In this document: positions 9,254-47,100 of the stretch, one piece after another
How the letters are laid out: each line of letters opens with the position of its first letter
How positions within the stretch are numbered: the stretch's first letter is position 1
Origin: Candidatus Latescibacterota bacterium
GTDB taxonomy: Bacteria; Latescibacterota; UBA2968; UBA8231
Length of the DNA stretch: 64,000 nt
Reading direction: 5' to 3'
Assembly (NCBI GenBank): GCA_965243025.1
Contig: CBDETY010000003.1
Location: 928,001-992,000 of the forward strand
Notes under the pieces: model-generated
The model's database searches: none
What the model was told of the DNA's origin: nothing
What the model saw: the letters and a program-made list of their open reading frames with translations, nothing else
Made by a program: the position numbers and the translations under genes

Positions 9254-9519
9254 GGGCCCGCCTCGTCCGGCAGTTCCACGTGTTCCACGCAACCCGGTTC
9301 ATCGTGCCCGGGATGGGGCCGGCCATCTCCTGATCTCTCCGATGGAACTGTTGGAAAGCTGGCGGTTCTGGTTCCCCCGGCCCGTTTCATACTCCTGCCT
9401 GTCGTCCGTTTCCCTGCACGGGCAGCCGCCAGCGCCGGCCGGGCTTTTCCGGGTCTCTCAGGTAAACGGCCCCGCCTTCGGATTAGATCCGCACCCGGCG
9501 CCCCCGCTTGACCGACTCG

Positions 9520-10050
9520 GTCTCCTTGAGACACAGGCGCAGGCCGTCGCGAGCGCTGATTCCCGACAGCTCCCCGGAGTCCCTGCCGGCGGCCACGTGC
9601 TCCAACCGCCTCCCGCAGCTCGGCGACGAAGCCGTCATTTCCGCGCAGCCGCGGCGGTCCCCCCTTCGGCGGTGAGCAGCACCGGGGGCTTACCCCACCA
9701 GCTGTTGTACTTGAGGGTCCCCCGCTCGAAGAACACGTCGTAGCCGTGCTCGAAGGGACAGCCCTGCTGGGACTAGCCAGCCGCCGCTGGCGGTCACCTG
9801 GGGCCCGCCCTCGAAGTGGTAGTGGGTGTCGATGTGCTCCACCACCCCTCCCCTGCGGATCACCCCCGCCGAGGTCACCGCCCCGGGCATGCCGAAAAGG
9901 AACTGCACGAAGTCGGCGTCGTGGATGTGCAGGTCGATGGCCGGTCCGCCGGTGCGGTCCAGATCCTTCGGGGCCCACCACGCCGGCATGGAAATGACGG
10001 GCTTGAAGTCAGCCGCCAAAACGCGCCGCAGAATCGCCGCCCTTGATGAC
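9520..10050 (-). pseudogene. Gfo/Idh/MocA oxidoreductase C-terminal fragment, frameshifted
   Basis: 'GGPAIDLHIHDADFVQFLFGMP' signature; continuation PFEHGYDVFFERG and DGFVAELREAV in other frames; no N-terminal Rossmann half. Confidence 0.7.
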
Positions 10051-10871
10051 CCCATTCGGAATGATCTTTCTGGTGGTTGACGGAGAGATCAGGCAGGAGT
10101 CCGGTTCGTGGGTGCCCTGGCATGGTATTGGCGAGACAACGCTGCAGAAGACATTCTCCTACGGAGAATACAGGAGCGGGACGATTCCCGAGGGATCCTC
10201 TCGTTGCCTTGCACTCCCTCTTGGGAAATCGGCACGGTGGATCGGAGGCCGGCTCTGATCGGGGAGGGGATGAGGGTCGGGACACCTGGCTAATCCCTGG
10301 GGGTTGGAAGCCGGTCGCCGCCGAGGGGGTCAGTTCAGGTGGGTTTGCTTGGGAGAATCAGGAACCGCCCGCGTCGAGGTGCCGATATCGGAAAAACCGG
10401 CTGCGGGGCGGAAGAAACACCAGTGGAACTTGCGAGGACTCCGCCGAGAATCCGCAAGCTGACCGAACTTCTGCAACAATCGACCTGATGGCGCTGTTTC
10501 TCGACGGGCAGGAGCTTCGGCCAACGATAACTCTCCAGTAACTTGCAAACGAAGGGATTCGGTTCCCTTCCTGGAAGCTGTCGGGGTTGTTTCTCACCAC
10601 AGCCGTGTGAGGTTCCGTCTGAAGGTTCTCCTCGGTCACCAAGCGTGTAGCCATCACTGCCACTTTCCAAAGGTCCTTCCACCCAGTGAAAACGACCGAA
10701 TTGACACCCCACGCATGGCCTTTGTACAGACCGTTGAGCCCCGGGCTTCCGCCCGGCTCTCCGGAGGACCGGGTGGGGAGCCGGTCTCCACGCCACCGGC
10801 GTCCGGCTCCGAGAGCATCCGTATGGTCAGTCTTTTGCCCCCCGTAGTTAGGTCCTACCCTGCCGCATCGA

Positions 10872-33292: not shown

Positions 33293-34393
33293 ATGCCAAT
33301 GGACACCTTGCGCGTTCTGTTATCGCTCGTAACGCTTCTTTGTTTCCTGGCGAACTTCCCCGCCGCCGCCTCTACCGAAGATGCCGCCCTGTATGCCAAC
33401 GCCTGCGCCGCGTGCCATGGGGCAGATGGACGAGGACGTTCGGCTGAAGACCTCGGCTTCGAGATTGAGCTGCCGGATTTTTCCGATTGTGAATTCGGTT
33501 CCAGGGAACCGGATCCCGACTGGTTTGCGGTGGTTCACGAAGGGGGCCCTGTCCGCGCCTTTGACCGGATGATGCCCGCGTTCGGAGATGCCCTGTCTGA
33601 GGAGGAGATCCACGCCGTCCTGAGGCACGTGCGCACTTTTTGCAGCAACGACGACTGGCCGCGAGGGGAGTTCAACGTACCCAAACCCCTGTTTACGGAG
33701 AAGGCGTTTCCCGAGGACGAGATTTACTTCCAACTGTCTGCAGGTACGGGCGGCCGCAAGGCGGTTGAATTCGAGGTGGTTTACGAAAACCGGTCCGGTC
33801 CCCGGGGGATGGTGGAAGTCTCCGTACCTGTGGGATGGCGCGATTCCCCGCAAGGGGGCGGTTCGAACTACGGCCCCGGTGATATAGGACTCGGCTACAA
33901 GTATGCCTTGTATCACGATCTGGAACGCGGGAACGGGTTGAGCATAGGCGGGGAGATGATTCTGCCCACCGGGGATGAGGACGAGGGTTTCGGGTCGGGG
34001 TCGACCAGACTGGAACCCTACGCGGCCTACGTCCATCTCCTCCCCGGGGACGCCTTCTTCCAGGCCCAAACCTTCGGTGAGTTTGCAGTGGGAGGGGAGG
34101 CTGACGACGAACTCGCACTGCGCGCCCTGCTGGGAAAGACCTGGACTCGGGGAGAGTTTGGCCGGGCCTGGAGTCCCATGGTGGAGGTACTGGTTTCCCG
34201 CGAGTTGGCCTCCGGGTCAGAAGCCAATCTGGATGTGGTCCCTCAAGTCCAGGTGGCTCTGAATACACGTCAACATATACTGCTCAATTCGGGGGTGCGC
34301 CTGCCCCTCGAGAACCGGCAGGACGGGGACCCGCAATTCGTCGCCTATCTCTTATGGGACTGGTTTGACGGAGGTTTCTTCGATGGCTGGTAG
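33293..34393 (+). CDS. Monoheme cytochrome c fused to a probable outer-membrane beta-barrel domain
   Basis: Signal peptide, CAACHG, MMPAFG axial Met; alternating beta-strands and aromatic C-terminus WDWFDGGFFDGW. Confidence 0.8.
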   Translation: MPMDTLRVLLSLVTLLCFLANFPAAASTEDAALYANACAACHGADGRGRSAEDLGFEIELPDFSDCEFGSREPDPDWFAVVHEGGPVRAFDRMMPAFGDALSEEEIHAVLRHVRTFCSNDDWPRGEFNVPKPLFTEKAFPEDEIYFQLSAGTGGRKAVEFEVVYENRSGPRGMVEVSVPVGWRDSPQGGGSNYGPGDIGLGYKYALYHDLERGNGLSIGGEMILPTGDEDEGFGSGSTRLEPYAAYVHLLPGDAFFQAQTFGEFAVGGEADDELALRALLGKTWTRGEFGRAWSPMVEVLVSRELASGSEANLDVVPQVQVALNTRQHILLNSGVRLPLENRQDGDPQFVAYLLWDWFDGGFFDGW

Positions 34394-35999
34394 AGGCATC
34401 CTTCGGATGGGTTCCGGGCTGGCAATGGGACAGCTCGGGCTCGTTGCCATGCTTGCGGGGGGCCGGGCTCTGGCTCAACCCGCGGACCATGTCACGTTCG
34501 CGAGTTCGGATCAGTGTATTGCCTGCCACAGCAATCTCACCGATGCCGAGGGAGGGTCCGTGTCCATCGGACATGCCTGGCGCGGCTCCATGATGGCCCA
34601 TTCGGCGCGCGACCCCTACTGGCAGGCATCCGTACGGCGGGAAGTAACCGACCACCCGGAGGCTCAGGCCAGAATCGAGGATACCTGCTCCACCTGCCAT
34701 ATGCCGATGGCGCGGGTCCTTTCAAAGGCGGACGGGGGGCTGGGGAAGGTGTTCGAACACCTCGAGGCTGCCGCACGGGGGGAAGAGAGCGCAACCCTCG
34801 CACTGGATGGGGTGTCCTGCACGACCTGCCATCAGATTCAGGCAGACAATTTCGGGATGGAGTCCAGCTTCGACGGCAACTTTCTGATTCGTTCCGGCGC
34901 CGAACCCCGGATTTTCGGACCGTTCGAGGTGGAAAACGGTCTCCGCATGGTCATGCAGTCGGCAACCGGATTCAGTCCGGACAGCTCCTCTCACATTCAG
35001 GAATCCGAGCTTTGCGCCACATGCCATACCCTTTTCATAACGAGTCTCGATGAAACGGGACAGGAGGTTTCGAAATTCCCCGAGCAGGTTCCTTACCTCG
35101 AATGGCAGCACAGCGATTTCGCCCAAACCAGAAGCTGTCAGGCGTGTCACATGCCGGAGGCTGCGGCCGCGCCGATTTCCTCGGTGCTGGGCGAGTCGAG
35201 AGAAAATGTCTCGCAGCATGTCTTTCGCGGAGGCAACGAGTTCATGCTGCGTCTCCTGGACAAGTACCGGAACGAGCTCCTGGTAACGGCGCCTTCCGCC
35301 GACCTCCAGCGTGCGGCTGCGGCTACCAGGGACCACTTGCAGACTTCCACGGCGGAGCTCGGGCTGCTGGCGGTCGTTCGGGAAAACGACCGCTTCGCCA
35401 TCGACCTGGAAGTGAAAAACCTCGCCGGCCATAAGCTGCCGACAGCCTACCCTTCACGCAGGATGTGGATACACCTTCAAGTGCATGACGAGAATGGGCG
35501 CCTTCTGTTCGAGTCCGGGGCCATGCGTCCCGACGGCAGCATCGAGGGCAATGACAACGACGCGGATCCGGGACGTTTCGAGCCGCATTACCGGGTGATC
35601 GACGACCCCGGGCAGGTGCAGATTTATGAACCCATTATCGCGGACCGCTCGGGGGAGGTCACCACGGGTTTGCTCCGCGCCGTCAAATACGCCAAGGACA
35701 ATCGAGTTCTTCCGATGGGGTTTGACAAGGATTCCGCGGTCGAGGCCACCATGGTGCACGGCAAGGCGCGCGAAGATGCGGACTTCGTTGGGGGCAGCGA
35801 CACGATTCGGTACTTTGTTCCCGCGGAGACCGAGGTTCCAGGGGTAAATGTTCGGGCGAGGCTCATGTTCCAGAGCATCGGCTTCCGGTGGGCGCACAAC
35901 CTATCCGCCTACACGGCAAGGGAAACCGAGCGTTTCGTGGGTTATTTCAGGGAGAATGCTTCGACTTCGGCAACCGTACTGGCAGAAGTCTCAAACTAG
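34383..35999 (+). CDS. Periplasmic multiheme cytochrome c (5 CxxCH)
   Basis: CIACH, CSTCH, CTTCH, CATCH, CQACH; GHKLPTAYPSRR motif; exact start uncertain. Confidence 0.85.
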   Translation: MAGRGILRMGSGLAMGQLGLVAMLAGGRALAQPADHVTFASSDQCIACHSNLTDAEGGSVSIGHAWRGSMMAHSARDPYWQASVRREVTDHPEAQARIEDTCSTCHMPMARVLSKADGGLGKVFEHLEAAARGEESATLALDGVSCTTCHQIQADNFGMESSFDGNFLIRSGAEPRIFGPFEVENGLRMVMQSATGFSPDSSSHIQESELCATCHTLFITSLDETGQEVSKFPEQVPYLEWQHSDFAQTRSCQACHMPEAAAAPISSVLGESRENVSQHVFRGGNEFMLRLLDKYRNELLVTAPSADLQRAAAATRDHLQTSTAELGLLAVVRENDRFAIDLEVKNLAGHKLPTAYPSRRMWIHLQVHDENGRLLFESGAMRPDGSIEGNDNDADPGRFEPHYRVIDDPGQVQIYEPIIADRSGEVTTGLLRAVKYAKDNRVLPMGFDKDSAVEATMVHGKAREDADFVGGSDTIRYFVPAETEVPGVNVRARLMFQSIGFRWAHNLSAYTARETERFVGYFRENASTSATVLAEVSN

Positions 36000-36187
36000 G
36001 TTCCATCCCCGGGGAGGGGTGCCGGACCAGTTGAAGCAGCGGCGCAGATTTGCAGGCCAGGCATGGATTTCCACCCGCTTTTCTTCACCATCCGGCGCCG
36101 GAGTGCGGTTTCGGGTGCTCTCGCCGGGGCCGGCCCGGAACCTCGGTGTAGCGGGAAGGTTCCCTAACCTGACGATGGGGAGATAAA

Positions 36188-36883
36188 GTGACGCGCGACA
36201 CTCCGAACCATGGATCCGCGGACTGCGGCCCGATGCCTCCCCTGGCCGAAGACGCGCTCAAGGTGCAGCGCTATTTCCCGACGCTCATTTTTTCCCTGGA
36301 AGTTCCGGACAGCGAGATACTGAACGCCCACCTGATCGAGGCGATCTACGCCGAACGGGAAGGCGACGGAACAGGGGTGCGCAAGTCGAACTTCCCGGAG
36401 CTGGGGAGTTGGCACAGCCACGTCAAACTGCACAGGGACGCCGCGTTTGCGGGATTGGTTCAATACGTCGACTCGGCCTCCGCCATGATGTGCCGCGAGC
36501 TCGGATATCACAGGTCCTATCACCTGAGCATCGGCACCATGTGGTCGATCATCAATCCACCGGGTGGCGTGAACCGGGCTCACATCCATCCCGGCTGCAT
36601 CTGGAGCGGCGTCTACTACGTCCAGGCACCCAGGAATTCGGGTCGAATCGAGTTCATCGATCCGCGCACCCAGAACCTGATGAGTGCCGTCGAATACATC
36701 CCCGACACCAGGCGCCCACGAATCTGCTGGACGAAGGTCCAATACAAGCCCGTGGCCGGAAGAATGCTGATCTTCCCGAGCTGGCTGTACCATAGCGTCG
36801 GTCCGAATCGATCCAGGGCCAGGGGGAAGGACGCCGACCGGATCATCGTGAGCTTCAACCTGTCTCAGGAAAGGCGCAGATAG
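36188..36883 (+). CDS. 2OG-Fe(II) oxygenase (TIGR02466 / 2OG-FeII_Oxy_5-like)
   Basis: WSIINPPGGVNRAHIHPG, WSGVYYVQ, IEFIDPR, LIFPSWLYHSV, RIIVSFN; RBS GGGAGA + GTG. Confidence 0.88.
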   Translation: MTRDTPNHGSADCGPMPPLAEDALKVQRYFPTLIFSLEVPDSEILNAHLIEAIYAEREGDGTGVRKSNFPELGSWHSHVKLHRDAAFAGLVQYVDSASAMMCRELGYHRSYHLSIGTMWSIINPPGGVNRAHIHPGCIWSGVYYVQAPRNSGRIEFIDPRTQNLMSAVEYIPDTRRPRICWTKVQYKPVAGRMLIFPSWLYHSVGPNRSRARGKDADRIIVSFNLSQERRR

Positions 36884-36910
36884 TTACCTTCACAAGAGAA
36901 GTGAATAGTT

Positions 36911-38644
36911 ATGAAACATCTACGGCGATTTGTTTCTCTCGTGGGCATATTGGCCTTGATGACTTTGGGCCGGCCTTCCTCTCTTTTCGGGCAGAGTGAA
37001 AAAGACACGCCGTTGGGTGACCAGATTCCGCCCCTACTGAGAAGCGAAAGGAGCATCGACTCACGAACCAGCTTCAACATCGGTGCTTCCAGTGATGATG
37101 ACGACGATGACGACGACGATGATGACGACGACGATGATGATGACGACGATGATGATGACGACGATGACGATGATGATGACGACGACGGCGACGAGGGCGA
37201 TGAGGGTGATGAGAACGACGAGGGGGACGAGGGGGACGAGAACGACGAGGGCGACGAGGGCGATGAGGATGACGAGGGCGACGAGAACGACGAGGGCGAT
37301 GAAGACGACGAAGGCGACGAGGACGACGAAGGCGACGAGGACGACGAGGGCGATGAGGACGACGAAGGCGATGAGGATGACGAGGGAGATGAGGATGACG
37401 AGGGCGACGAGGGGGACGAGAACGACGAGGGCGACGAGAACGACGAAGGCGATGAGGACGACGAGGGGGATGAGGGCGATGAGGACGACGGTGACGAGGG
37501 GGATGAGGGGGATGAGGATGACGAGGGCGATGAGGACGACGAGGGTGACGAGGGGGACGAGAACGACGAGGGCGACGAGGGGGATGAGGACGATGAGAAC
37601 GACGAGGGGGATGAGGACGACGAGGGGGATGAGGATGACGAGGGCGATGAGGATGACGAGGGCGATGAGGGCGACGAGGACGAGGGCGACGAGGGGGACG
37701 AGGACGACGAGGGGGATGAGGATGACGAGGGGGATGAGGACGACGAGGGCGACGAGGGGGATGAAGGCGACGAGAACGACGAGGGCGATGAGGGCGACGA
37801 GGACGACGGCGACGAGGGGGATGAGGGCGACGAGGGGGATGAAGACGACGAGGGAGATGAGGACGACGAGGGGGATGAGGACGACGAGAACGACGAGGGC
37901 GACGAGGGCGACGAGAACGACGAAGGGGATGAGGGGGACGAGAACGACGAGGGCGATGAGGGTGACGAGGACGACGGCGACGAGGGCGATGAGGGCGACG
38001 AGGGGGATGAGGGCGACGAGAACGACGAGGGTGATGAGGGTGACGAGGGGGACGAGGGGGACGAGGACGACGAGGGAGACGAGGGGGACGAGAACGACGA
38101 GGGGGACGAGGACACCAACGGAAGCGCAGGGACGTCAGAAAGCAGGACATTCGCGCCGCTCAGTGGGGATTTCGATGGCGATGGAAAAGTCGGTTTTTCC
38201 GATTTCTTCCTCCTTGCCGATGCCATGGGCAGCAGCGATCCAACCTTTGACCTCGATGGCAGCGGCCTGGTCGATTTCTCGGACTTCTTTCTGTTTGCCG
38301 ACTCTTTCCCACCGTCGCAGCGGGCCAAGTTGCTGGAGCTGGCGCGGGAATCGATCGGGCTGCCCGTTGGCCCCGAGCTGTACCAGAACGCACCCAATCC
38401 CTTCAACAGCGAGACCGTTCTTTCCTACATCCTCCGGGAGCCTGGTCCTGCCCGCCTGGAGATCCTCACGGTAACCGGGCAACGGGTGAAGGTCTTGAGC
38501 CAGGGTGATCAGAAGGCGGGTTACCACCGGATTTCCTGGGACGGCCTGGATGACGCAGGCCAACCGTTGGCAAGCGGCGTCTACCTGTACAGACTGGCGA
38601 CGACCGAGGGGGCATTGACCCGCAAGCTGGTTCTGCTGCGCTGA
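36911..38644 (+). CDS. Secreted hyper-acidic repeat protein (Asp31 + about 100 [G/N/D]DE units) with dockerin-like + FlgD-like tail
   Basis: Signal peptide, about 34-aa spacer, 340 aa made only of D/E/G/N, then the same tail as the WD40 proteins. Confidence 0.9.
   Translation: MKHLRRFVSLVGILALMTLGRPSSLFGQSEKDTPLGDQIPPLLRSERSIDSRTSFNIGASSDDDDDDDDDDDDDDDDDDDDDDDDDDDDDDDGDEGDEGDENDEGDEGDENDEGDEGDEDDEGDENDEGDEDDEGDEDDEGDEDDEGDEDDEGDEDDEGDEDDEGDEGDENDEGDENDEGDEDDEGDEGDEDDGDEGDEGDEDDEGDEDDEGDEGDENDEGDEGDEDDENDEGDEDDEGDEDDEGDEDDEGDEGDEDEGDEGDEDDEGDEDDEGDEDDEGDEGDEGDENDEGDEGDEDDGDEGDEGDEGDEDDEGDEDDEGDEDDENDEGDEGDENDEGDEGDENDEGDEGDEDDGDEGDEGDEGDEGDENDEGDEGDEGDEGDEDDEGDEGDENDEGDEDTNGSAGTSESRTFAPLSGDFDGDGKVGFSDFFLLADAMGSSDPTFDLDGSGLVDFSDFFLFADSFPPSQRAKLLELARESIGLPVGPELYQNAPNPFNSETVLSYILREPGPARLEILTVTGQRVKVLSQGDQKAGYHRISWDGLDDAGQPLASGVYLYRLATTEGALTRKLVLLR
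37094..38113 (+). repeat. Coding low-complexity tandem repeat: (GAY)31 then 9-bp units
   Basis: Mixed GAT/GAC, GAG/GAA and GGN codons with the frame preserved throughout. Confidence 0.95.
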
Positions 38645-38659
38645 CCGGGCCGGTCCCGA

Positions 38660-40072
38660 ATGGCTTCGGTTCTAAGGAGCCGCCCCGTAGTCCTCGCGGA
38701 GGTACTGACCCGGCAGGTCGACGCCTCCCCCATCGTGTTTTTCAGGGTCCTCTTCGGCATCCTCATGGCCGTAGAGGTCATTCGATACTGGGCCCACGGC
38801 CGCATATCGCGTTACTACATCGAGCCGGCGTTCCTCTTTTCCTTCGTGGAATGGATCAAGCCGGTCGGTGTCGGCATGTATCCGGTTTTCATCCTCATGG
38901 GAGCTGCCGCGCTTTTCCTGGCGATCGGATACCACTACCGGGCGGCGTCGATCCTGTACTTCGTCCTCTACACCTATGCGTTCCTTCTCGACAAGGCGCA
39001 GTACAACAACCACTACTACCTGATCTGTCTGCTGGCCTTTCTTTTCGCGGTGACGAATGCCGACCGGGGATTTTCAATCGACGCCGTGCGGCGCAGGCTT
39101 CCATCCCTGGTTCCCGCCTGGCAGGTCTACCTGTTTCGCCTGCAGGTCTGCGTCCTGTTTTTCTACGCAGGGGTGGCCAAGATAAACGCCGACTGGCTGT
39201 CGGGTGAACCGGTCAGAACCTGGCTGGCTGCCAGGTCGGACTATTTCCTGATCGGACCTCTCCTGCTGAAGGAGTGGTTCGTTTTTTTGTACGCCTACGC
39301 GGGGATGGTATTCGACCTGGGGATTGGGTTTGCGCTGTTATGGTCCAAGACCCGGGGGGCCGGTTTCGTGCTGCTCCTCGGGTTCAATCTCCTGAACAAG
39401 TGGTTCTACGACATCGGCATCTTTCCGTACCTGGCGATGGCGGCGTTCGTCCTCTTCATGGACGGTACCAGTATCAGCGGCCTGTTCGGTCGCTGGGTCC
39501 GAACCCGCGCCGTGGGCGGCGCCGTGGTGCGCGACCTGCTGGGGGAGGGGGCGGAAACCGGAGCAAACCCCCGCAAACCAACACCCTGGACGGAACTGCT
39601 CTCCAGGTTGGGCGGTTTCGGAATCCGGGCCAAGGCGGTTCTGGTATCCGGGTTCGTTCTCGTTCAGCTCCTTGCGCCGCTTCGCCATTTCGCCATCCCG
39701 GGCCATGTGGCCTGGACGGAGGAGGGCCATCTGTTTTCGTGGAGGATGAAGCTGCGAGACAAGAGGGCAGAGGAGATTATCTTCTATACCAAAGATTCTC
39801 GTTCAGGAAACATCAACGAGCTGCCGACGGATGGCCTGACCAGAAGGCAGAAAAGAAAGATGTCCACCAGGCCGCACATGATTGTTCAATACGCCAGGCA
39901 CCTTTCCGAGGATCTCAGGAAAAGCGGCTTCGAGAACGCCCCCGTTTACGTCGGGACCTCGGTTTCCCTGAACAGCCGCGATCCCAGACCCCTGATCGAC
40001 GAGAGTGCCGACCTTGCGAAAGTGCAATACCGCTCATTTGGGCATAACGGCTGGATAACCACCCTCGAATAG
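38660..40072 (+). CDS. Vitamin K-dependent gamma-glutamyl carboxylase homologue (HTTM + lumenal domain)
   Basis: FRVLFG, FLLDKAQYNNHYYL, YAGVAKINADWL, IGIFPY, WTEEGHLFSWRMKL, MIVQYA, VSLNSR..PLID correspond to conserved GGCX blocks (WNNHSYL, AGVKKLDADW, GYSWDMM). Confidence 0.9.
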   Translation: MASVLRSRPVVLAEVLTRQVDASPIVFFRVLFGILMAVEVIRYWAHGRISRYYIEPAFLFSFVEWIKPVGVGMYPVFILMGAAALFLAIGYHYRAASILYFVLYTYAFLLDKAQYNNHYYLICLLAFLFAVTNADRGFSIDAVRRRLPSLVPAWQVYLFRLQVCVLFFYAGVAKINADWLSGEPVRTWLAARSDYFLIGPLLLKEWFVFLYAYAGMVFDLGIGFALLWSKTRGAGFVLLLGFNLLNKWFYDIGIFPYLAMAAFVLFMDGTSISGLFGRWVRTRAVGGAVVRDLLGEGAETGANPRKPTPWTELLSRLGGFGIRAKAVLVSGFVLVQLLAPLRHFAIPGHVAWTEEGHLFSWRMKLRDKRAEEIIFYTKDSRSGNINELPTDGLTRRQKRKMSTRPHMIVQYARHLSEDLRKSGFENAPVYVGTSVSLNSRDPRPLIDESADLAKVQYRSFGHNGWITTLE

Positions 40073-40207
40073 TTGCCCGCGGAGAGGGTCTCGGTCGGAA
40101 TCCGATTACCGGGTGGACTTCTGGAACTACACGTCGAGGCGCGACTCAAGGTGTACGGGACACCCCTTGGAACCGGCTCCTGCCATCTTTTGCCCGCCTT
40201 TTCGGTC

Positions 40208-40699
40208 TCAAAGTGAAGACTTCGGGGACACGCGGATTCCCGAGGCCACCATTTCGAACTTCGGGGCCTCCGCAAGCCCGGGCGGCTGCGCGGAGGATTC
40301 CGCCCGATAGTGCTCCTCCGCGCCCGGATCAGCCGCCTGCAACAAGCCATGGACCGTGGCCGAACGCCCGCTGATCTCCCGCGGCACTGTATAGGCGTAA
40401 CTTCCGTCCTCGTGGCGCGCTACGTGCACGCGCAATCCCGCTGCGGTATCCAGGGCGCGCAGCACGAGCCAGCAGCCCGCATTCTGGCATACCTCATGGA
40501 CGGTACCTGTAACGGTAACCGGCCGGTCGAGATACCTTTCGGGCTCGGCCAGGACAGCCTCTACCGGCAAGGCTTCCTGCGGCATGCCGGCTGTGCCGAA
40601 GAGATCGTCCTCCGGGGTGTCCAGCCGTGCGCAAGCGGAAACCAAAAGGAGAACGAGGCTCCTCAAAGGCATGGTTTGAACTGTTGCAGCGTGTTTCAT
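40208..40699 (-). CDS. DUF4920-like OB-fold lipoprotein
   Basis: Lipobox VSAC; VTVTGTVHEVCQNAGCWLVL. Confidence 0.7.
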   Translation of the reverse strand: MKHAATVQTMPLRSLVLLLVSACARLDTPEDDLFGTAGMPQEALPVEAVLAEPERYLDRPVTVTGTVHEVCQNAGCWLVLRALDTAAGLRVHVARHEDGSYAYTVPREISGRSATVHGLLQAADPGAEEHYRAESSAQPPGLAEAPKFEMVASGIRVSPKSSL

Positions 40700-41105
40700 G
40701 ATTTCAGGCGATGCTCACGTGTTGGCAATTCTTGCCCTGTCAGGGTCCTCTTCCCGTCCCTCATGTCCACCAAGCTGTACCTGCTGACGGAACACTCCGA
40801 GAACAACCGGGCTGGCCGAAGATGAGCGGGGGGTGACATCGCCGCAGGCCAGATAGCTGGTTTGCAGTGATTCCTCTCTGGCAGGCCCGACCGACACATC
40901 TACACAAAAGTCGAACTCCCCAAAGATATCAATTTCAGCCCCCGACCCAGGATGAATCCCCGGTTGGTGCGGGGCCTGGTGGCGCACCAGGCTTCGGACT
41001 TCCGGGACTGGAGGCTGTCGGTCATTGCGCTTCGACCGCGGCCGTCCTCGGAGCTCGGCACATTTTGGTGGTTTCAGGCCACGGACAGGATTACCGTAAT
41101 CAGGA

Positions 41106-44100
41106 TTACCGTAATAGGGTAAGCTTGCGCGTCTGAACGCTCCCCTCGGTCGACAGCCGGTAGAGATACACCCCACTTGCCAGGGAGCGGCCATTGTCGC
41201 CACGTCCATCCCAGTGCACGCGGTGGACGCCGGCCTTTTTCGGTCCCTGGTGCAGCACCGCCACCCGTTGCCCGGTCAGGGAGAATATCTCCAGCCGCAC
41301 GGGACCCGGCTCCAGCAGAAACCAGGAAATGACGGTCTCGCTGTTGAAGGGGTTGGGCCAGTTCTGCTGCAACTGCGTTTCACGGGGCAACCCGATCAAG
41401 TCATGGGCCAGGGCCACCAGCTTCGCCCGCCCCGACGGGTTGAAGGCGTCGATGAACTTGAAGAAGTCGACGAAGTCGACGGTGCCGCTGCCGTCGAGGT
41501 CGAACCGGGCATCGGTGCCCCCATAGGCGTCGATGAACAGGAAGAAGTCGGCAAAATCGGTCTTGCCGTCGCCGTTGAAATCGGTCGTGGCCTGCGCCGG
41601 GGTTCCCCGGGCCTTGGAGGGCATGTTGTACGAGTAGATCTTCTTGTCGGACAGGTCGGTGACCCACATCGTCTCGCCGTCCGACCAGATGCCGAGAGTG
41701 ACGTGGGTCAAAGTTGGATGCAACGCACTGAAGTCCCTTGACGAGTCCCGGGACCCGGTCGCCAAGTCGTAGGCAAACAGCCTGAGGAACAATGAATCCC
41801 CGACCCACAGAGTCACGCCGTCCGACCAGATGCCGAATGCTCTCTGGTTGCCGTCCGAGCGCGGCGTATTGATATCCTTGGCAGCATCTCTCGCTTTCGT
41901 AACCAGGTCGTAGGCGAAGACCTTGTCATCCTTGTTGTCGTGGTTGACAACCCACATGGTCGTGCCGTCCGACCAGATGCCCCGGGGACCGTCGTTTCCG
42001 GCAGCGCTCAGAGTACCGAAGTCCTTGGACGCGTCTCTTGCCTTGGTGGAAAGGCTGTATGCATATATCCTGGCGTCTGTCCCATCTGCCACCCACATGG
42101 TCGTGCCGTTCGACCAGATGCCCCGGGGATCGTCGTTGCCGGCCGCCTTCAAAGTACTGAAGTCCCTGGCTGCATCCCTTGCCTTGGTGGACAGATTGTA
42201 TGCGAATATCTTGGACTCGGGGGCGTTGTTGTAGTTGGCCACCCACATGGTCGTGCCATCCGACCAGAGACCGGCAGGATGATTGTTCTCCGCGACCAAG
42301 GTGTTGAAGTCATCGACGGCCTTCCAACCGAAGGGTGTCGTCACGCCCCGGCCAATTGCGACGGTATACGCCTTCGTAGTCTGCCCGTCGCTCGCGGTGG
42401 CCCTGATTGTGACTTCGTTTCTGCCCTCTGACAGCGACACCGAGTAGGAAGATCCGCTTGAGACGGAAATGCCGCCAATGTCGATGGTGGAGCCGGCATC
42501 AGCCGCCGTTGCGGTAATGCTGACCTGAGGTACTGAATTGGCGACGCCGACGTGGTAGGTGGTCACGTCGGCGTCGAAGCCTGTAATGTCCACGGGACTG
42601 ACCGTGAGTGCTTTCAGGAGTGGTTCCGGTTCGGCGTCGGGCACCGGGGTCAGTCCCCAGCATTCGAGGCTGCCGTCTGTCCGCACCCCGCAACTATGCG
42701 CCCATCCGGCGCTCACTTGGCTGAAGGCCCCGCTCGGTGCGTCCCTGCGGCCGTCCAGATTGCTCCCCCAACAGGCTACGCCACCGTCGGTCTCCACTCC
42801 GCAACTATGCCAGATTCCCGCGCTCACCTGGCTGAAGTTGCCGCTCGGTGCGTCCCTCTGACCATAGCGGTTCCCCCCCCAACAGACCACCCTACCGTCC
42901 GTCCGCACCCCGCAACTATGGTACGATCTCGCGCTCACTTGGCTGAAGTTCCCGCTTGGTGCGTCCGTCGTCTGGTCAACGTCGTCACGGCCCCAGCATT
43001 CGACGCTGCCGTCCGTTCGCAGCCCGCAACTATGTGACGTGCCCGCGCTGATCTGACTGAAACGGCCGCTCGGAGCGTCCGCCTGACCATACTGGTCACT
43101 CCCCCAACAGACCACGCCACCGTCCGTCCGCAGCCCGCAACTATGGGCCGCGCCCGCGCTCACCAGGCTGAAGCTCCCGCTCGGAGCGTCCGTTCGGCCA
43201 TCGTCGGCCCGCCCCCAACAGAGTACGGTGCCGTCCCTTCGCACGCCGCAACTATGATAGGTGCCAGCGCTGACATCGCTGAAGCTCCCGCTCGGAGCGT
43301 CCGACTGCCCAAAGTCATCGAGCCCGCTGTTCCCCCAGCAGACGACCCTGCCGTCCGTCCGCAGCCCGCAATTATGTGACGTGCCCGCGCTGACCTGACT
43401 GAAGCTCCCGCTCGGAGCGTAGGGTGAAGGGGGCGGCGGAGGGGGCTCTGCGGCCGCCGGCATGTTGTATGCGTATATCTTTGCGTCCGTCTCGTCGGCC
43501 ACCCACATGGTCATCCCGTCGGACCAGATGCCCCGGGCCGCCTCGTTTCCGGCGGCGCCAAGGGTAGCGAAGTCCCTGGAGGAATCCCTAGCCCCGGAGG
43601 CCAGGTAGTATGCGTACAGCCTGCTTTGGGCCCAGTTGGCGACCCAGATGGTAGTGCTGTCAGACCAGATGTATTCAAACGCGCCGGAGCCGGGACCTGT
43701 GACGTAATCGAAGTCCTTGCCGGAGTCGCGAGCCCTCGTGAGCAGGTCGTAGGCATAGATGTGGTTGTCCTCATCGTCCACGACCCACATCGTGCTGTCG
43801 TCCGACCAGATTCCGGCGGGATCCTCGTTCCCGGCCGCCTTCAGCCCGTCGAAGTCCTTGGAGGCGTCTCGCGCCCAAGTCGAAAGGCTGTAGGCGTACA
43901 ACTTGGCGTCCTCGGAGTCGGAGACCCACATGGTCGTGCCGTCCGACCAGAGGCCCTCGGGACTGTTGTTGCCGGCAGTGGTCGGCGTGTCCAGGTCCTT
44001 GGCCGCATCACGAGCTGTCGTGGCCATGCTGTAGGCATAGATCTTGGCGTCCTCGGAGTCGGAGACCCACATGGTCGTGCCGTCCGACCAGAGGCCGCCC

Positions 44101-47100
44101 GGAGAGCTGTTGCCCGCGGCGTCGAGGGTGTTGAAGTCCCCGACGGCGTTCCAGCCAAAGGTTGTAGTCACACTCCGCACTACGGTGACGGTATAGACTT
44201 TGGTCGTCCGTCCGTCGCCAGACCTGACCGATATCCTGATGTCGTTTGGTCCTTCAGCTAGCGAAACCGAGTGGGAAGAGCCGCTTGATGCGGCGCTTCC
44301 ATCGATGTCGATGGTCACCCCCGGGGTTGTGGCATTGGCCACTACCGTGACCTCTGTGACCTCGTTGGGGACACCCACGTGATAGGCGGTCACCTCGCTG
44401 TTGAAGGGGGCGATGCCCCCGGGACTGACGGTCAGTCCGCTCAGCGTGGCGTCCGAATATTCGGGCATGTTGTAAGAGAAGATCTTGAATGTGGCGGATT
44501 CTTCTCCATACGAAGCCAAGTCACTGTCGTCCCAATCATGATCATCCATTTCCACTGTCGGGGATTCTGGGAATGGCCATATTCTGCGTTTCACTCCATT
44601 AACGACCCACATGGTTGTCCCGTCGGACCAGATGCCCCAAGGGGATGTATTGCCGGCAGCCACTAAGGTGTTGAAATCTCTGCTTGCGTCACGAGCCTTC
44701 GTGGCCAAATTGTAGGCGTAAATCTTAGCGTAGTCTCCGTACACCGCCCACATGGTCGTGCCGTCCGTCCAGATCCCTGCTATACCTCTTGTACTTGAGC
44801 CTTTGTCAGCAGAAAGATCCAAATCAAAAAGATGCTGCTTCGTGGCCAAACTGTAAGCGCGAATTATCCAAGTCGCCATTTCGACGACATACAAGACTCC
44901 ATTGCTGATCGCTATGTCGCCCTGATATGGTGTGATGCTCCCGTCGCTGATGGGATAGCTGACGAGGGTGATTTCCTTGCTCCAATCCCTCGCGTAGTTG
45001 GACAGCTTGTAGGCAAATAGATCTCCCGAGGACAACTCGGAGACATACTGAGGTTACCCCGATTTCACGGACAGTTTTCCGTTTGGATTTATACCCCTTG
45101 ATAAATGATACCTCTCGTAGTTGATGGGAGATCGTTGTCCCAGGGCCGAGTGCCGCCGATGGGGGTTGTACCAGCCTTCCAGGTATTCGAAAACCGTACG
45201 CTGGGCTTGCGACTGGGTAGCAAACCGATGACGATCCAGCAGCTCCCTTTCCAAGGTGGCGAAAAAGCTTTCGCACAGAGCATTGTCGAAGCAGTCACCG
45301 ACCGATCCCATCGACGGACGTACCCCGGCCTGGCGACAGCGCTTCCCGAAGGCCAGGGCCGTATACTGACTGCCGTGGTCGGAGTGGTGAATCACTTTCT
45401 TGGGACGGCGCCGGTGCAGGGCCATGTCAAGGGCGTCCAGCACCAACTGCGTACGCATATGGTTCGCCATGGCCCAGCCCACCACTCGGCGGCTCCAGGC
45501 GTCCATGACCACGCTCAGATACAAAAACCCCGACCTCGTGGGAATGTAGGTGAGATCGGCAACCCACAGGCGATTCGGGCCGGAGACCGAAAACACCCGC
45601 TTGACCAGGTCGGAGGCGACCCGGCCCTGCCGGCCGCGACGGGTGGTGGAGAGGCGGCGGCGGGCGCATACCCCGCGCACCCCGAGCTCAAGCATCAATC
45701 GGGCGATGCGCTTGCGACCGATGGCTTGGCCCTCCTCGGCCAGTTCGGCCCGGATCCTCGGCGCTCCATAAGTGCCCCGGGAGTGTTGGTGGATCTGCTC
45801 GACACGTGCCTTGAGCACGGCATCGGCCCGGGCGCGACCCGAAGGCGGGCGTTTCAACCAGGCGTAGTAGCCGCTGGGGGAGACCTTCAGCACGCGGCAC
45901 ATCGTCAGCACCGGAAAGTCGGCCTGGTGCGCTCTCATGAACTCGTAGACGGGCCGGACTCCGAGTCGGCCTCGCGAGCGAACCAGGCCGTGGCTTTTGC
46001 CAGGATCTCCCGTTCGATACGCAGTTGCTTGTTCTCACGGCGAAGGCGCCGCAATTCCTCCTGCTCCGGACGGGAGGGGCCGTCGCGGCGCACCCCCTCA
46101 TCGCGTTCGGCCTGGATCACCCAGTTGCGGATCGTCTGCCCGGACGGCTCGAATTCCTTGGCCAGCGACTCCGGACTACGACCCGCCCGTACCAGTTCCA
46201 CCATCTGTTGCCGGAATTCGGGCGGATAAGGGGAATGGGATTTCGGCATGGTTGGACACCCTCCTTTCTTTCAAGAAATGAAGTGTCCACGAAATCGGGT
46301 CAACTCCATACATAGTCGTGCCGTCCGTGGCGATGCCGGTAGGGTAGTTGTTCCCGTAGGTTCCCATGGTATGGAATTGATCGATCGCCCGCATCTTCGT
46401 GGCCATGCTGTAACTGCACAGATGGCTCGCTTGAATGGGATAAGGGTCCTGGAATGGCTCGATGCAGGTAAGCCACATCGTCGTACCGTTCGAAGTGATG
46501 TACACTGGTAAATTGGAAATGCCAAGGTCGTTGAAGTCGTCAGTAACCTTCCAGCCGAAGGGAGCATCGGATCCCCTGTCTGCGCCAATGCTGTATTCCC
46601 TGGTGGTCGTGCCGTCCTGCGCGGTCACCGTGATGGTGATCTCGTTGCTTCCTTCTGCGAGTGAGACGGTGTGGCCCGATCCGCTGGAGACGGTGCTTCC
46701 ATTGATGTCGATGGTCGCCCCGTCGTCACTCGAGTAGGGCGTAACCGTGACCTGGCTGACTGCGTTGGCCACGCCAAGGTGGTAGGAGAGCACGTCGGCG
46801 GCAAAACCCTCGATGTCCACGGGACTGACCCCCAGTGCCTTCAGCGTCGCGTCAGTCGAGGAACCCCCGCCGGCCGGCGGGGAGGCGTCTGGTCGCTGCG
46901 CCCCGAATTCCCGCCAAGTGGCAGTTCCGTCGCCGTCGAAGTCCGCTCGCAGCGCCGGGTACTGCTGCGCGGTCCCGAACTCCCAGGGGTCGTCGCCGCC
47001 GGTGGTCGCATCTCGGTCCCCGTCGGCGTTGTCCACGTCCAGGTTCCATTCCGCGTAGATGCCCGAGTACCCGGTGGGGGTCTGCAGTTCCGCTGTCGTC

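Follow-up and report, generated by a model that had tools for sequence, protein, structure and literature searches.

A secreted poly-Asp and x-[Asp/Asn]-Glu repeat protein of Latescibacterota as candidate shared substrate of a 2-oxoglutarate oxygenase and a vitamin K-dependent carboxylase homologue

Why would a bacterium encode a protein made up largely of aspartate and glutamate between a 2-oxoglutarate (2OG)-Fe(II) oxygenase and a homologue of the gamma-glutamyl carboxylase that depends on vitamin K (VKGC; GGCX in humans)? This question is raised by positions 36188 to 40072 of a 64,000-nucleotide stretch from Candidatus Latescibacterota bacterium (assembly GCA_965243025.1, contig CBDETY010000003.1, positions 928,001 to 992,000; hereafter the window), in which the three genes are co-directional and separated by gaps of only 27 bp and 15 bp, an arrangement that an earlier note on this DNA had described and that the open reading frame (ORF) coordinates confirm. 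The answer that we favour, and that we consider moderately probable from sequence comparisons, is that the acidic protein is a disordered, extremely anionic substrate shared by two independent enzymes, each of which would act on one of its repeat types, the poly-Asp tract in the case of the VKGC homologue and the x-[Asp/Asn]-Glu triplets in the case of the oxygenase. The cassette and the parts of the acidic protein are:

36188..36883, + strand: cytoplasmic 2OG-Fe(II) oxygenase of the TIGR02466 / PF13759 family, 231 aa (profile matches)
36911-38644, + strand: ORF of the acidic secreted protein, 577 aa
36911..36991, + strand: signal peptide of the acidic protein, aa 1-27 (MKHLRR, then a hydrophobic core, ending in LFG; by eye)
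36992..37093, + strand: conserved 34-aa leader, aa 28-61, ending in RTSF-x-x-GASS just before the repeats
37094..37186, + strand: Asp31 tract, aa 62-92, proposed site of action of the VKGC homologue
37187..38113, + strand: 100 x-Asp-Glu triplets, aa 93-401, proposed site of action of the oxygenase
38168..38308, + strand: DxDGDG / DxDGSG loop pair, EF-hand- or dockerin-like, aa 420-466 (by eye)
38393..38641, + strand: C-terminal sorting domain of the type IX secretion system (T9SS), type A, aa 495-577 (TIGR04183)
38660..40072, + strand: membrane VKGC/GGCX homologue with HTTM and lumenal domains, 470 aa

The acidic protein contains 178 Asp, 111 Glu and 90 Gly among its 577 residues, and its Asp31 tract is followed by 100 [G/N/D]-D-E units (66 GDE, 21 DDE and 13 NDE) in a region with 101 Glu. 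These counts, together with the TIGR04183 match (31.7 bits against a cut-off of 23), bear out the earlier description of a signal peptide, Asp31, about 100 D-E triplets with about 100 Glu, and a surface-sorting tail; signal peptides, here and throughout, were judged by eye. As the genome also encodes SprA (TIGR04189, E 5.6e-141), the only T9SS part searched for, the sorting domain places the protein among type A cargo of this system. The N-terminus with the signal peptide recurs in 15 relatives and the leader is kept across all Latescibacterota-type relatives. At the DNA level the repeat shows periods of 18 and 27 bp (TRF; about 57 copies at 77% matches) and draws on mixed synonymous codons, indicating that it is the amino-acid pattern that is kept and not the DNA. 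In the whole 6.8-Mb genome this gene is the single x[DN]E run of at least 8 units and also the single segment that passes our poly-Asp criterion (at least three runs of D4+ or one run of at least 10), and the locus is thus more than a chance product. Long off-frame ORFs over the repeat (513 aa, Ser/Pro-rich, and 358 aa, Arg/Pro/His-rich, both on the - strand; 463 aa, Thr/Arg/Met-rich, on the + strand) were rejected as frame artefacts; the signal peptide, the sorting domain and the conservation of the frame in relatives all identify the + strand frame as the correct one. Pfam revealed no Gla (gamma-carboxyglutamate) domain in the protein, its sole match being the Collagen model (E 5e-8), which reflects periodicity only: a collagen triple helix was rejected because Gly occupies position 1 in just 66 of the 100 units. 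An EF-hand/dockerin-like pair followed by a sorting domain also ends the 1309-aa T9SS protein encoded at 41106-45035 (-), with a weak dockerin_GC match, and this module seems to be common to cargo proteins of the window genome.

The upstream enzyme was confirmed as an HxH...H 2OG-Fe(II) oxygenase devoid of a signal peptide, as the earlier note had it, and it has no hydrophobic N-terminus either. It matches TIGR02466 with 194.8 bits (cut-off 62.5, E 1.4e-57) and PF13759 with E 1.9e-23, the latter being its only match in a Pfam search at E<=0.01, in which neither an ASPH nor an FIH family match was found, and its putative metal- and 2OG-binding residues (His132-x-His134, His202 and Arg218) do not vary among 16 aligned homologues. 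Its PDB relatives are 3bvc and 2rg4 (both uncharacterised, E 1e-14); these are also the nearest folds to its predicted structure (pLDDT 80), followed by protein prolyl 4-hydroxylases (P4H/PHD). The P4H-like fold of the model supports a peptide substrate, not a particular residue. We also observed that the oxygenase is unusually conserved, with some 100 protein clusters at 70-89% identity that bear labels from metagenome-assembled genomes of several phyla, that the adjoining VKGC gene is far less conserved than the oxygenase (67-80% within the family), and that a multihaem cytochrome encoded upstream is 94% identical between the window genome (G000) and a relative (G118); such unequal conservation suggests differing rates or lateral transfer.

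With which sequences does this oxygenase travel? It is present in 14 of the 168 phylum genomes searched, and in all 14 the next co-directional gene encodes an acidic protein, although these genomes are kin and 14/14 therefore overstates the number of independent cases. The 14 proteins (251 to 938 aa) have a signal peptide, the leader, poly-Asp and (G/N/D)-D-E repeats, some with added Ig-like domains. Beyond the phylum, a metagenome scan returned 578 relatives of the oxygenase, of which the best 80 loci (40-88% identity, many on short contigs) were kept; an x[DN]E run of at least 8 units was detected at 22 of these 80, at 10 of the 17 flanked by 3 kb or more on each side and at 9 of the 12 flanked by 5 kb or more, and a broader acidity criterion captured 26 of the 80. 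As a control, 0.92 Mb of VKGC loci (L011-L086) contained no x[DN]E run of at least 8 units. At 49-58% oxygenase identity the neighbours are x-[Asp/Asn]-Glu repeat proteins that lack a signal peptide and lie next to type I secretion genes: by phmmer, an ABC exporter gene directly follows the oxygenase in 30 of the 80 metagenome loci, often with HlyD thereafter, one example exporter having ABC_membrane and ABC_tran domains and being followed by an HlyD-family protein. These proteins are 600-1100 aa long, with a leader of about 40 aa and up to about 300 repeats, and they carry the same hydrophobic-x-[VIL]-S-F motif before the repeats as the window protein; some oxygenase-linked repeat proteins are nearly pure (GNE)n. 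Because the export route differs in these distant loci, they lend independent support to the linkage between oxygenase and triplet. Across 2,735 triplets collected with the pattern x-[D/N]-E, which itself fixes Glu at position 3, position 2 was Asp in 2,108 and Asn in 627, whereas position 1 varied (Gly in 1,499); counted from the Glu residues, Asp or Asn preceded Glu in 101/101, 261/273 and 256/259 cases in three repeat regions. Near another relative of the oxygenase, a short (GNE)n tract stands at the N-terminus of an RTX-type protein with GGxGxD repeats (L164:3895-5688, -), from which it follows that the triplet module can combine with classical type I secretion substrates.

The downstream gene product is a VKGC/GGCX homologue. 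It matches PF05090 (HTTM, E 5.7e-73) and PF22777 (VKGC lumenal domain, E 1.1e-38), aligns with human GGCX chains in two stretches (phmmer, E 5e-44) and contains the blocks NNHYYL, AGVAKINADW and GHLFSWRM that had been read from the sequence before, with His118 and Lys174 as the equivalents of His160 and Lys218. Altogether, Asn117, His118, Lys174, Trp179, Asp219 and Phe255 correspond to human N159, H160, K218, W223, D263 and F299; among 82 bacterial homologues the Lys218 and Phe299 equivalents are kept in 82/82, and those of Asn159, His160, Trp223 and Asp263 in 81/82 each. In the passages of PMC12647623 that treat the human active site, Lys218, held by Trp223 and next to Asp263, deprotonates the quinol, and Asn159, His160, Phe299 and Tyr395 form the site for the substrate carboxylate and CO2, with Tyr395 binding the substrate carboxylate. 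The AlphaFold model of the bacterial protein (pLDDT 81.5) superposes on human GGCX with a TM-score of 0.78 over 472 alignment columns (Foldseek), the superposition that the earlier note had proposed as a check, and GGCX accounts for all 16 PDB matches at E<=0.001. The closest VKGC-type paralogue of the window genome (C3:412500-413903, -; 31% identity) has no acidic neighbour and carries Thr, Tyr and Ile at the Asn159, His160 and Tyr395 positions, with the Lys218 equivalent kept. MqnA/MqnD-type menaquinone genes are present in the genome. A complex prediction of the VKGC homologue with aa 28-110 of the acidic protein scored 0.01, with controls not run, and is used neither way.

Which residues might such an enzyme meet? 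A scan of one genome per species yielded 551 relatives, of which the best 80 loci were kept; gene calls in relatives derive from our own ORF scans. The four loci above 50% identity (L007, L008, L009 and L010) all directly follow an acidic T9SS protein. Within the phylum, a VKGC-type match at E<=1e-40 occurs in 21 of 168 genomes, with close orthologues (67-80%) in the window genome, G104, G118, G123 and G143 and fragments in G117 and G049; each of the five close orthologues, like a Rhodothermales orthologue (54%), comes directly after an acidic T9SS protein. Most telling is G143, whose 70%-identical orthologue stands behind a (DDDDDG)n protein with zero Glu in the repeat tract; the 8.6 kb upstream contain no oxygenase. 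The tract of the neighbour at the Rhodothermales locus (L009) consists of Asp and Gly only. Asp-only tracts beside VKGC homologues were found in Rhodothermales, Bacteroidota, Planctomycetota, Chloroflexota and Cyanobacteriota, and distant VKGC genes (37-44% identity) also adjoin poly-Asp proteins. In all, about 15 of the 80 loci have an adjacent poly-Asp or polyacidic protein (L007-L010, L014, L017, L026, L027, L031, L036, L042, L061, L069, L079 and L084); the distant ones have a C-terminal poly-Asp tail directly upstream of the VKGC gene (L017, L027, L036, L042, L061, L069), internal D4-6 repeats (L014, L026, L031, L084 and also L098) or, in L079, a 12-Asp run about 1 kb away; the neighbours in L009, L014, L017, L026, L027, L061 and L084 are Asp-rich with little Glu. 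The poly-Asp gene is usually co-directional and within 500 bp, and the density of runs of at least five Asp falls steeply with distance from the VKGC gene:

0-500 bp from the VKGC gene: 24.5 per 100 kb (10 loci)
500-1500 bp: 17.3 per 100 kb
1.5-3 kb: 2.6 per 100 kb
3-5 kb: 0.4 per 100 kb
5-8 kb: 0 per 100 kb
background, own genome: 0.25 per 100 kb

On a quick maximum-likelihood tree of 82 VKGC proteins, from which L010 was left out as its gene is split, the label "acidic neighbour" changes 8 times, at least 7 of these changes being forced by well-supported branches; the association therefore recurs in several clades, or is ancestral and has often been lost. Where its N-terminus is intact, each such VKGC neighbour carries a signal peptide or a lipoprotein signal. 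Two side observations concern these loci. A secreted family whose members are built of a Cys-containing domain, a linker rich in Gly and Asn, and a poly-Asp tail at the C-terminus occurs in a cyanobacterium and in Chloroflexota, with a copy on each side of the VKGC gene in L027 (5950-6888 and 9117-10244) and directly upstream of it in L061 (5854-6906) and L042 (5747-6922). In the closest relative (80%; L010 / L117 of G104, 9394-10806) the VKGC gene is split over three frames, as a pseudogene or through assembly indels.

These neighbourhoods bear on the account given in the earlier note, that the VKGC homologue is a true gamma-glutamyl carboxylase that converts the roughly 100 triplet Glu to Gla, with the oxygenase as accessory in a fixed trio. 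It can draw on a fold that equals GGCX, on the retained equivalents of N159, H160 and F299 at the Glu/CO2 site and on the 101 Glu of the window repeat region. Yet the acidic tracts of VKGC neighbours are often nearly Glu-free (G143, L009, L014, L017, L026, L027, L061 and L084), 8 of 14 genomes retain the GDE-repeat protein and the oxygenase but have no VKGC gene, His stands in for human Tyr395, and MloH, in the sources cited below the only bacterial orthologue whose reaction is published, carboxylates aspartyl; we regard conversion of Glu to Gla in such a trio as unlikely. The claim that the acidic neighbour is a dedicated substrate is supported by the conserved linkage of each enzyme to such a neighbour; Glu as the conserved carboxylase target is not, given (DDDDDG)n in G143 and Asp-only tracts in several phyla. 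The survey of VKGC neighbours suggested at the time did reveal enrichment of acidic secreted proteins near the gene, poly-Asp rather than Glu-rich, but the expected TIGR02466 oxygenase turned up in just 1 of the 80 loci.

A fixed three-gene system was accordingly rejected, as the oxygenase is present in 1/80 VKGC loci and a VKGC gene in 0/80 oxygenase metagenome loci, and the trio as a single system is further contradicted by the 8 of 14 oxygenase-bearing genomes that lack a full VKGC-type gene. Of the 14, only G000, G104 and G118 have a VKGC gene behind the acidic gene; G117 has a fragment upstream. Our reading is that the two enzymes are independent modules and that the window protein carries both target types in tandem. 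One could instead suppose that only the pair of oxygenase and repeat protein is functional and that the window's VKGC gene, inserted after the acidic gene by chance, is a passenger specific to this lineage, in keeping with the pairing of oxygenase and acidic protein in 14/14 genomes and with a VKGC gene that is variable, split in G104 and present in G049 and G054 as remnants only. Against a passenger speak the VKGC genes that adjoin poly-Asp elsewhere without any oxygenase (G143, L009, L014, L026, L027, L036, L042, L061, L069 and L084) and the steep fall-off with distance, and we think it very unlikely. In G049 (L115:8110-8649) and G054 (L135:10891-11142), both of genus g24, we noticed that the acidic protein ends after the EF-hand-like pair (...FNKP) and lacks the sorting domain, which looks like the outcome of a deletion spanning the end of the acidic gene and the start of the VKGC gene.

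How might two modules act on one protein? The acidic protein would be exported via Sec and then by the T9SS. Before export, the cytoplasmic oxygenase would hydroxylate a side chain in the x-[Asp/Asn]-Glu triplets, most likely the beta-carbon of Asp or Asn at position 2, with the invariant Glu as the alternative, and the conserved leader may serve as docking site for this step. Known Asp/Asn beta-hydroxylases tolerate Asp and Asn alike, and the alternation of D and N at position 2 favours beta-hydroxylation there for that reason. In the periplasm, the VKGC homologue would then draw on menaquinol, O2 and CO2/bicarbonate to add a carboxyl group to the carbon adjacent to a side-chain carboxylate, chiefly in poly-Asp, giving beta-carboxy-Asp as MloH does on aspartyl, and possibly in Glu too; beta-carboxy-Asp rather than, or besides, Gla is proposed on account of the linkage of VKGC genes to Asp and of the aspartyl carboxylation by MloH. 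Finally, the T9SS would place the product on or outside the cell, where its carboxylate, malonate-type and hydroxy-carboxylate groups would bind Fe and/or Ca. The topology fits this order of events: the oxygenase, predicted to be cytoplasmic, accompanies substrates of both export routes, whereas the VKGC homologue, predicted to face the periplasm, has only neighbours with signal peptides where the N-terminus is intact and was found at none of the 80 oxygenase metagenome loci.

A variant of this scheme would have the repeat proteins act as precursors that are cut after modification into small acidic chelators of tripeptide scale, in the manner of peptides that are made on the ribosome and modified after translation (RiPPs). 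The type I secretion-type proteins, with a conserved leader of about 40 aa, no signal peptide and up to about 300 repeats, would suit such a role, and the passages of PMC12186529 on SmaO describe a RiPP pathway with a 2OG Asp beta-hydroxylase. We hold it to be highly improbable: no protease gene was noted in the listed loci (no search was aimed at proteases), and the T9SS-type proteins end in folded C-terminal modules (EF-hand-like, Ig-like, LRR, FN3 and sorting domains) that are typical of surface proteins.

Several results weigh against the two-enzyme reading, in addition to the kinship of the 14 genomes. On the side of the oxygenase, the motif is His-x-His and not the usual His-x-Asp/Glu, and at L144, L150/L151 and L152, where the oxygenase is 71-88% identical, no repeat gene lies in the 6 kb flank. 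On the side of the VKGC homologue, human Tyr395 corresponds to His357, and to His in 78/82 bacterial proteins. The protein ends at aa 470, at about human residue 504 (the offset between 9bvk chain numbering and full-length numbering being +26), and the C-terminal third of the human enzyme, a region beyond about residue 504 that is part of propeptide binding, is missing from it. Neither a VKOR homologue for quinone-epoxide recycling nor, by TIGR00751, MenA was found in the window genome. About 65 of the 80 VKGC loci have no acidic neighbour within the DNA examined, and 8 of the 14 genomes with oxygenase and acidic protein have no VKGC-type match at E<=1e-40 genome-wide, G049 and G054 retaining remnants only; carboxylation, if any, is thus dispensable and poly-Asp persists in its absence, its length in the phylum not following the presence of the VKGC gene. 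A sigma-70 scan found no promoter-like site (0 sites) at the cassette, and no RNA run is listed as containing the stretch, which four runs of a single study contain as contigs of unstated kind. The five terminator-like sites all lie within the VKGC ORF and do not exceed shuffled sequence (2.9 +/- 2.2).

Some of these points would also be expected if the VKGC homologue were no carboxylase, being instead a quinol-dependent oxygenase or epoxidase, another membrane enzyme (with a lipid, a small molecule or a redox partner as substrate) or a periplasmic handler of polyanions, with its poly-Asp neighbours sharing nothing more than a cation- or iron-related physiology. A VKGC orthologue of Leptospira reportedly has epoxidase activity and no carboxylase activity; VKOR was not found in the window genome, the enzyme is dispensable in most related genomes, and iron and haem genes recur nearby. 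Conversely, 81-82 of 82 proteins retain the equivalents of the CO2/carboxylate residues F299, N159 and H160, which is hard to explain without a carboxylate substrate, and the linkage to poly-Asp is tight, co-directional, usually below 500 bp and found at no fewer than 7 places on the tree. On balance a VKGC homologue that does not carboxylate seems unlikely to us, and we retain poly-Asp as its candidate target.

The iron and haem genes bear on what the modified protein might do. Scanning the seven proteins encoded at 33293-45035 with Pfam and TIGRFAM identified, besides the cassette and a DUF4920 protein, the following neighbours:

33293-34393, + strand: cytochrome c fused to an outer-membrane barrel (MetA-like; Pfam matches), possibly linked context
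34365-35999, + strand: multihaem cytochrome (Pfam matches), 3' end 188 bp upstream of the oxygenase
41106-45035, - strand: 1309-aa T9SS protein with RCC1 repeats and cadherin-like domains

The cytochrome pair (33293-35999) also flanks the G118 cassette (L141:1088-3776) and is convergent to the poly-Asp/VKGC pair of Rhodothermales (L009:8566-11540), and in G118 the VKGC gene is followed by a haem-uptake operon (HmuY, HemS/ChuX, FecCD, a binding protein and a TonB-dependent receptor). A di-haem oxidoreductase (DHOR) gene lies near the cassette in 8 loci, all of the window's own family and 7 assigned to genus g12; 7 of these 8 also have an imelysin gene, with a porin-like gene where checked (L113:11622-15440; L133-L139; L008; L116). 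It is this recurring context, a matter of adjacency, for which metal binding is proposed, and the neighbouring iron and haem genes are a hint in that direction. Extending the argument from this locus to its relatives, many bacteria might make ribosomal proteins with hundreds of non-standard acids, namely beta-carboxy-Asp (perhaps Gla) formed by VKGC enzymes on poly-Asp and beta-hydroxy-Asp/Asn formed by TIGR02466 enzymes on x-[D/N]-E, to be exported by type IX or type I secretion as protein-sized metal chelators or mineral-controlling coats, in this lineage tied to extracellular iron chemistry; we put this forward as a tentative idea, possible though on the doubtful side.

The interest of the locus lies in two families for which little has been reported. 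Among the widespread bacterial VKGC/HTTM homologues a reaction is known for MloH alone, an enzyme of a small-molecule pathway. Two structures have been solved in the TIGR02466 family, which includes many marine and phage members; a search for TIGR02466, PF13759 and 2OG-FeII_Oxy_5 found nothing on the function of the family in titles and abstracts. A search for HTTM found no link to poly-Asp in titles and abstracts of the best-ranked papers, and searches combining carboxyaspartate, HTTM with gamma-carboxylase and bacteria, and 2-oxoglutarate with type I secretion and acidic repeat yielded no prior description. For either family, this locus and its relatives point to a candidate substrate that can be tested cheaply, namely Asp tracts in the case of VKGC enzymes and x-[D/N]-E triplets in that of the oxygenase, and the pairing of enzyme and repeat can be checked across thousands of genomes. 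If the chemistry holds, vitamin K-dependent protein carboxylation would exist outside animals, bacterial VKGC enzymes would have their first class of ribosomal protein substrates, and secreted polyanionic proteins with heavy modification would form a new class that may serve in the handling of iron or calcium and in mineral control; an origin of this type of carboxylation on poly-Asp in bacteria would be suggested as well.

The known systems each resemble a part of this cassette. Human GGCX shares with the bacterial enzyme the HTTM and lumenal domains, the superposable fold and the equivalents of Lys218, Trp223, Asp263, Asn159, His160 and Phe299; the active side of the bacterial enzyme, too, would face an exported substrate, and the candidate substrate here is likewise secreted, acidic and putatively cation-binding. 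The human enzyme differs in being 758 aa long versus 470 aa, in having Tyr395 where the bacterial protein has His, and in its quinone, which would be menaquinone in the bacterium; the bacterial candidate substrates are defined by poly-Asp, no Gla domain was found in the window protein and no VKOR partner in its genome. MloH, the VKGC orthologue of the Streptomyces malonomycin pathway, carboxylates aspartyl (Law et al. 2018, as described in passages of PMC12647623 and bioRxiv 10.64898/2026.08.19.745780), and its reaction corrects the earlier statement that bacterial VKGC homologues have no established substrate. Compared by this description only, it is a bacterial VKGC orthologue acting on the very residue to which gene linkage points here, whereas its substrate is a polyketide/non-ribosomal peptide intermediate and ours would be a ribosomal, Sec-exported protein; unlike the MloH cluster, the neighbours scanned at 33293-45035 include no non-ribosomal peptide synthetase or polyketide synthase genes.

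For the oxygenase, collagen and protein prolyl 4-hydroxylases offer the parallel of a 2OG-Fe(II) oxygenase acting with a long, secreted tripeptide-repeat protein, and they are the next-nearest folds; the window repeats differ in lacking proline, and the enzyme differs in belonging to TIGR02466 with a His-x-His motif. ASPH, which acts on EGF domains, FIH and SmaO are likewise 2OG-Fe(II) modifiers of peptides, and ASPH and FIH accept both Asp and Asn, as the alternation in the triplets would require of our enzyme. A precedent in genomic terms comes from Iyer et al. 2010 (PMC2938197), who predicted, by comparative genomics, bacterial operons in which dioxygenases accompany secreted peptides made of glycine-rich, collagen-like tripeptide repeats. 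In the passages of that paper that bear on these operons the enzymes are of the beta-hydroxylase, JmjC and PhyH families and are accompanied by sulfotransferases, and neither TIGR02466, x-[D/N]-E repeats nor a VKGC homologue is named there; what the two cases have in common is a bacterial double-stranded beta-helix dioxygenase encoded beside a secreted tripeptide-repeat protein that it probably modifies.

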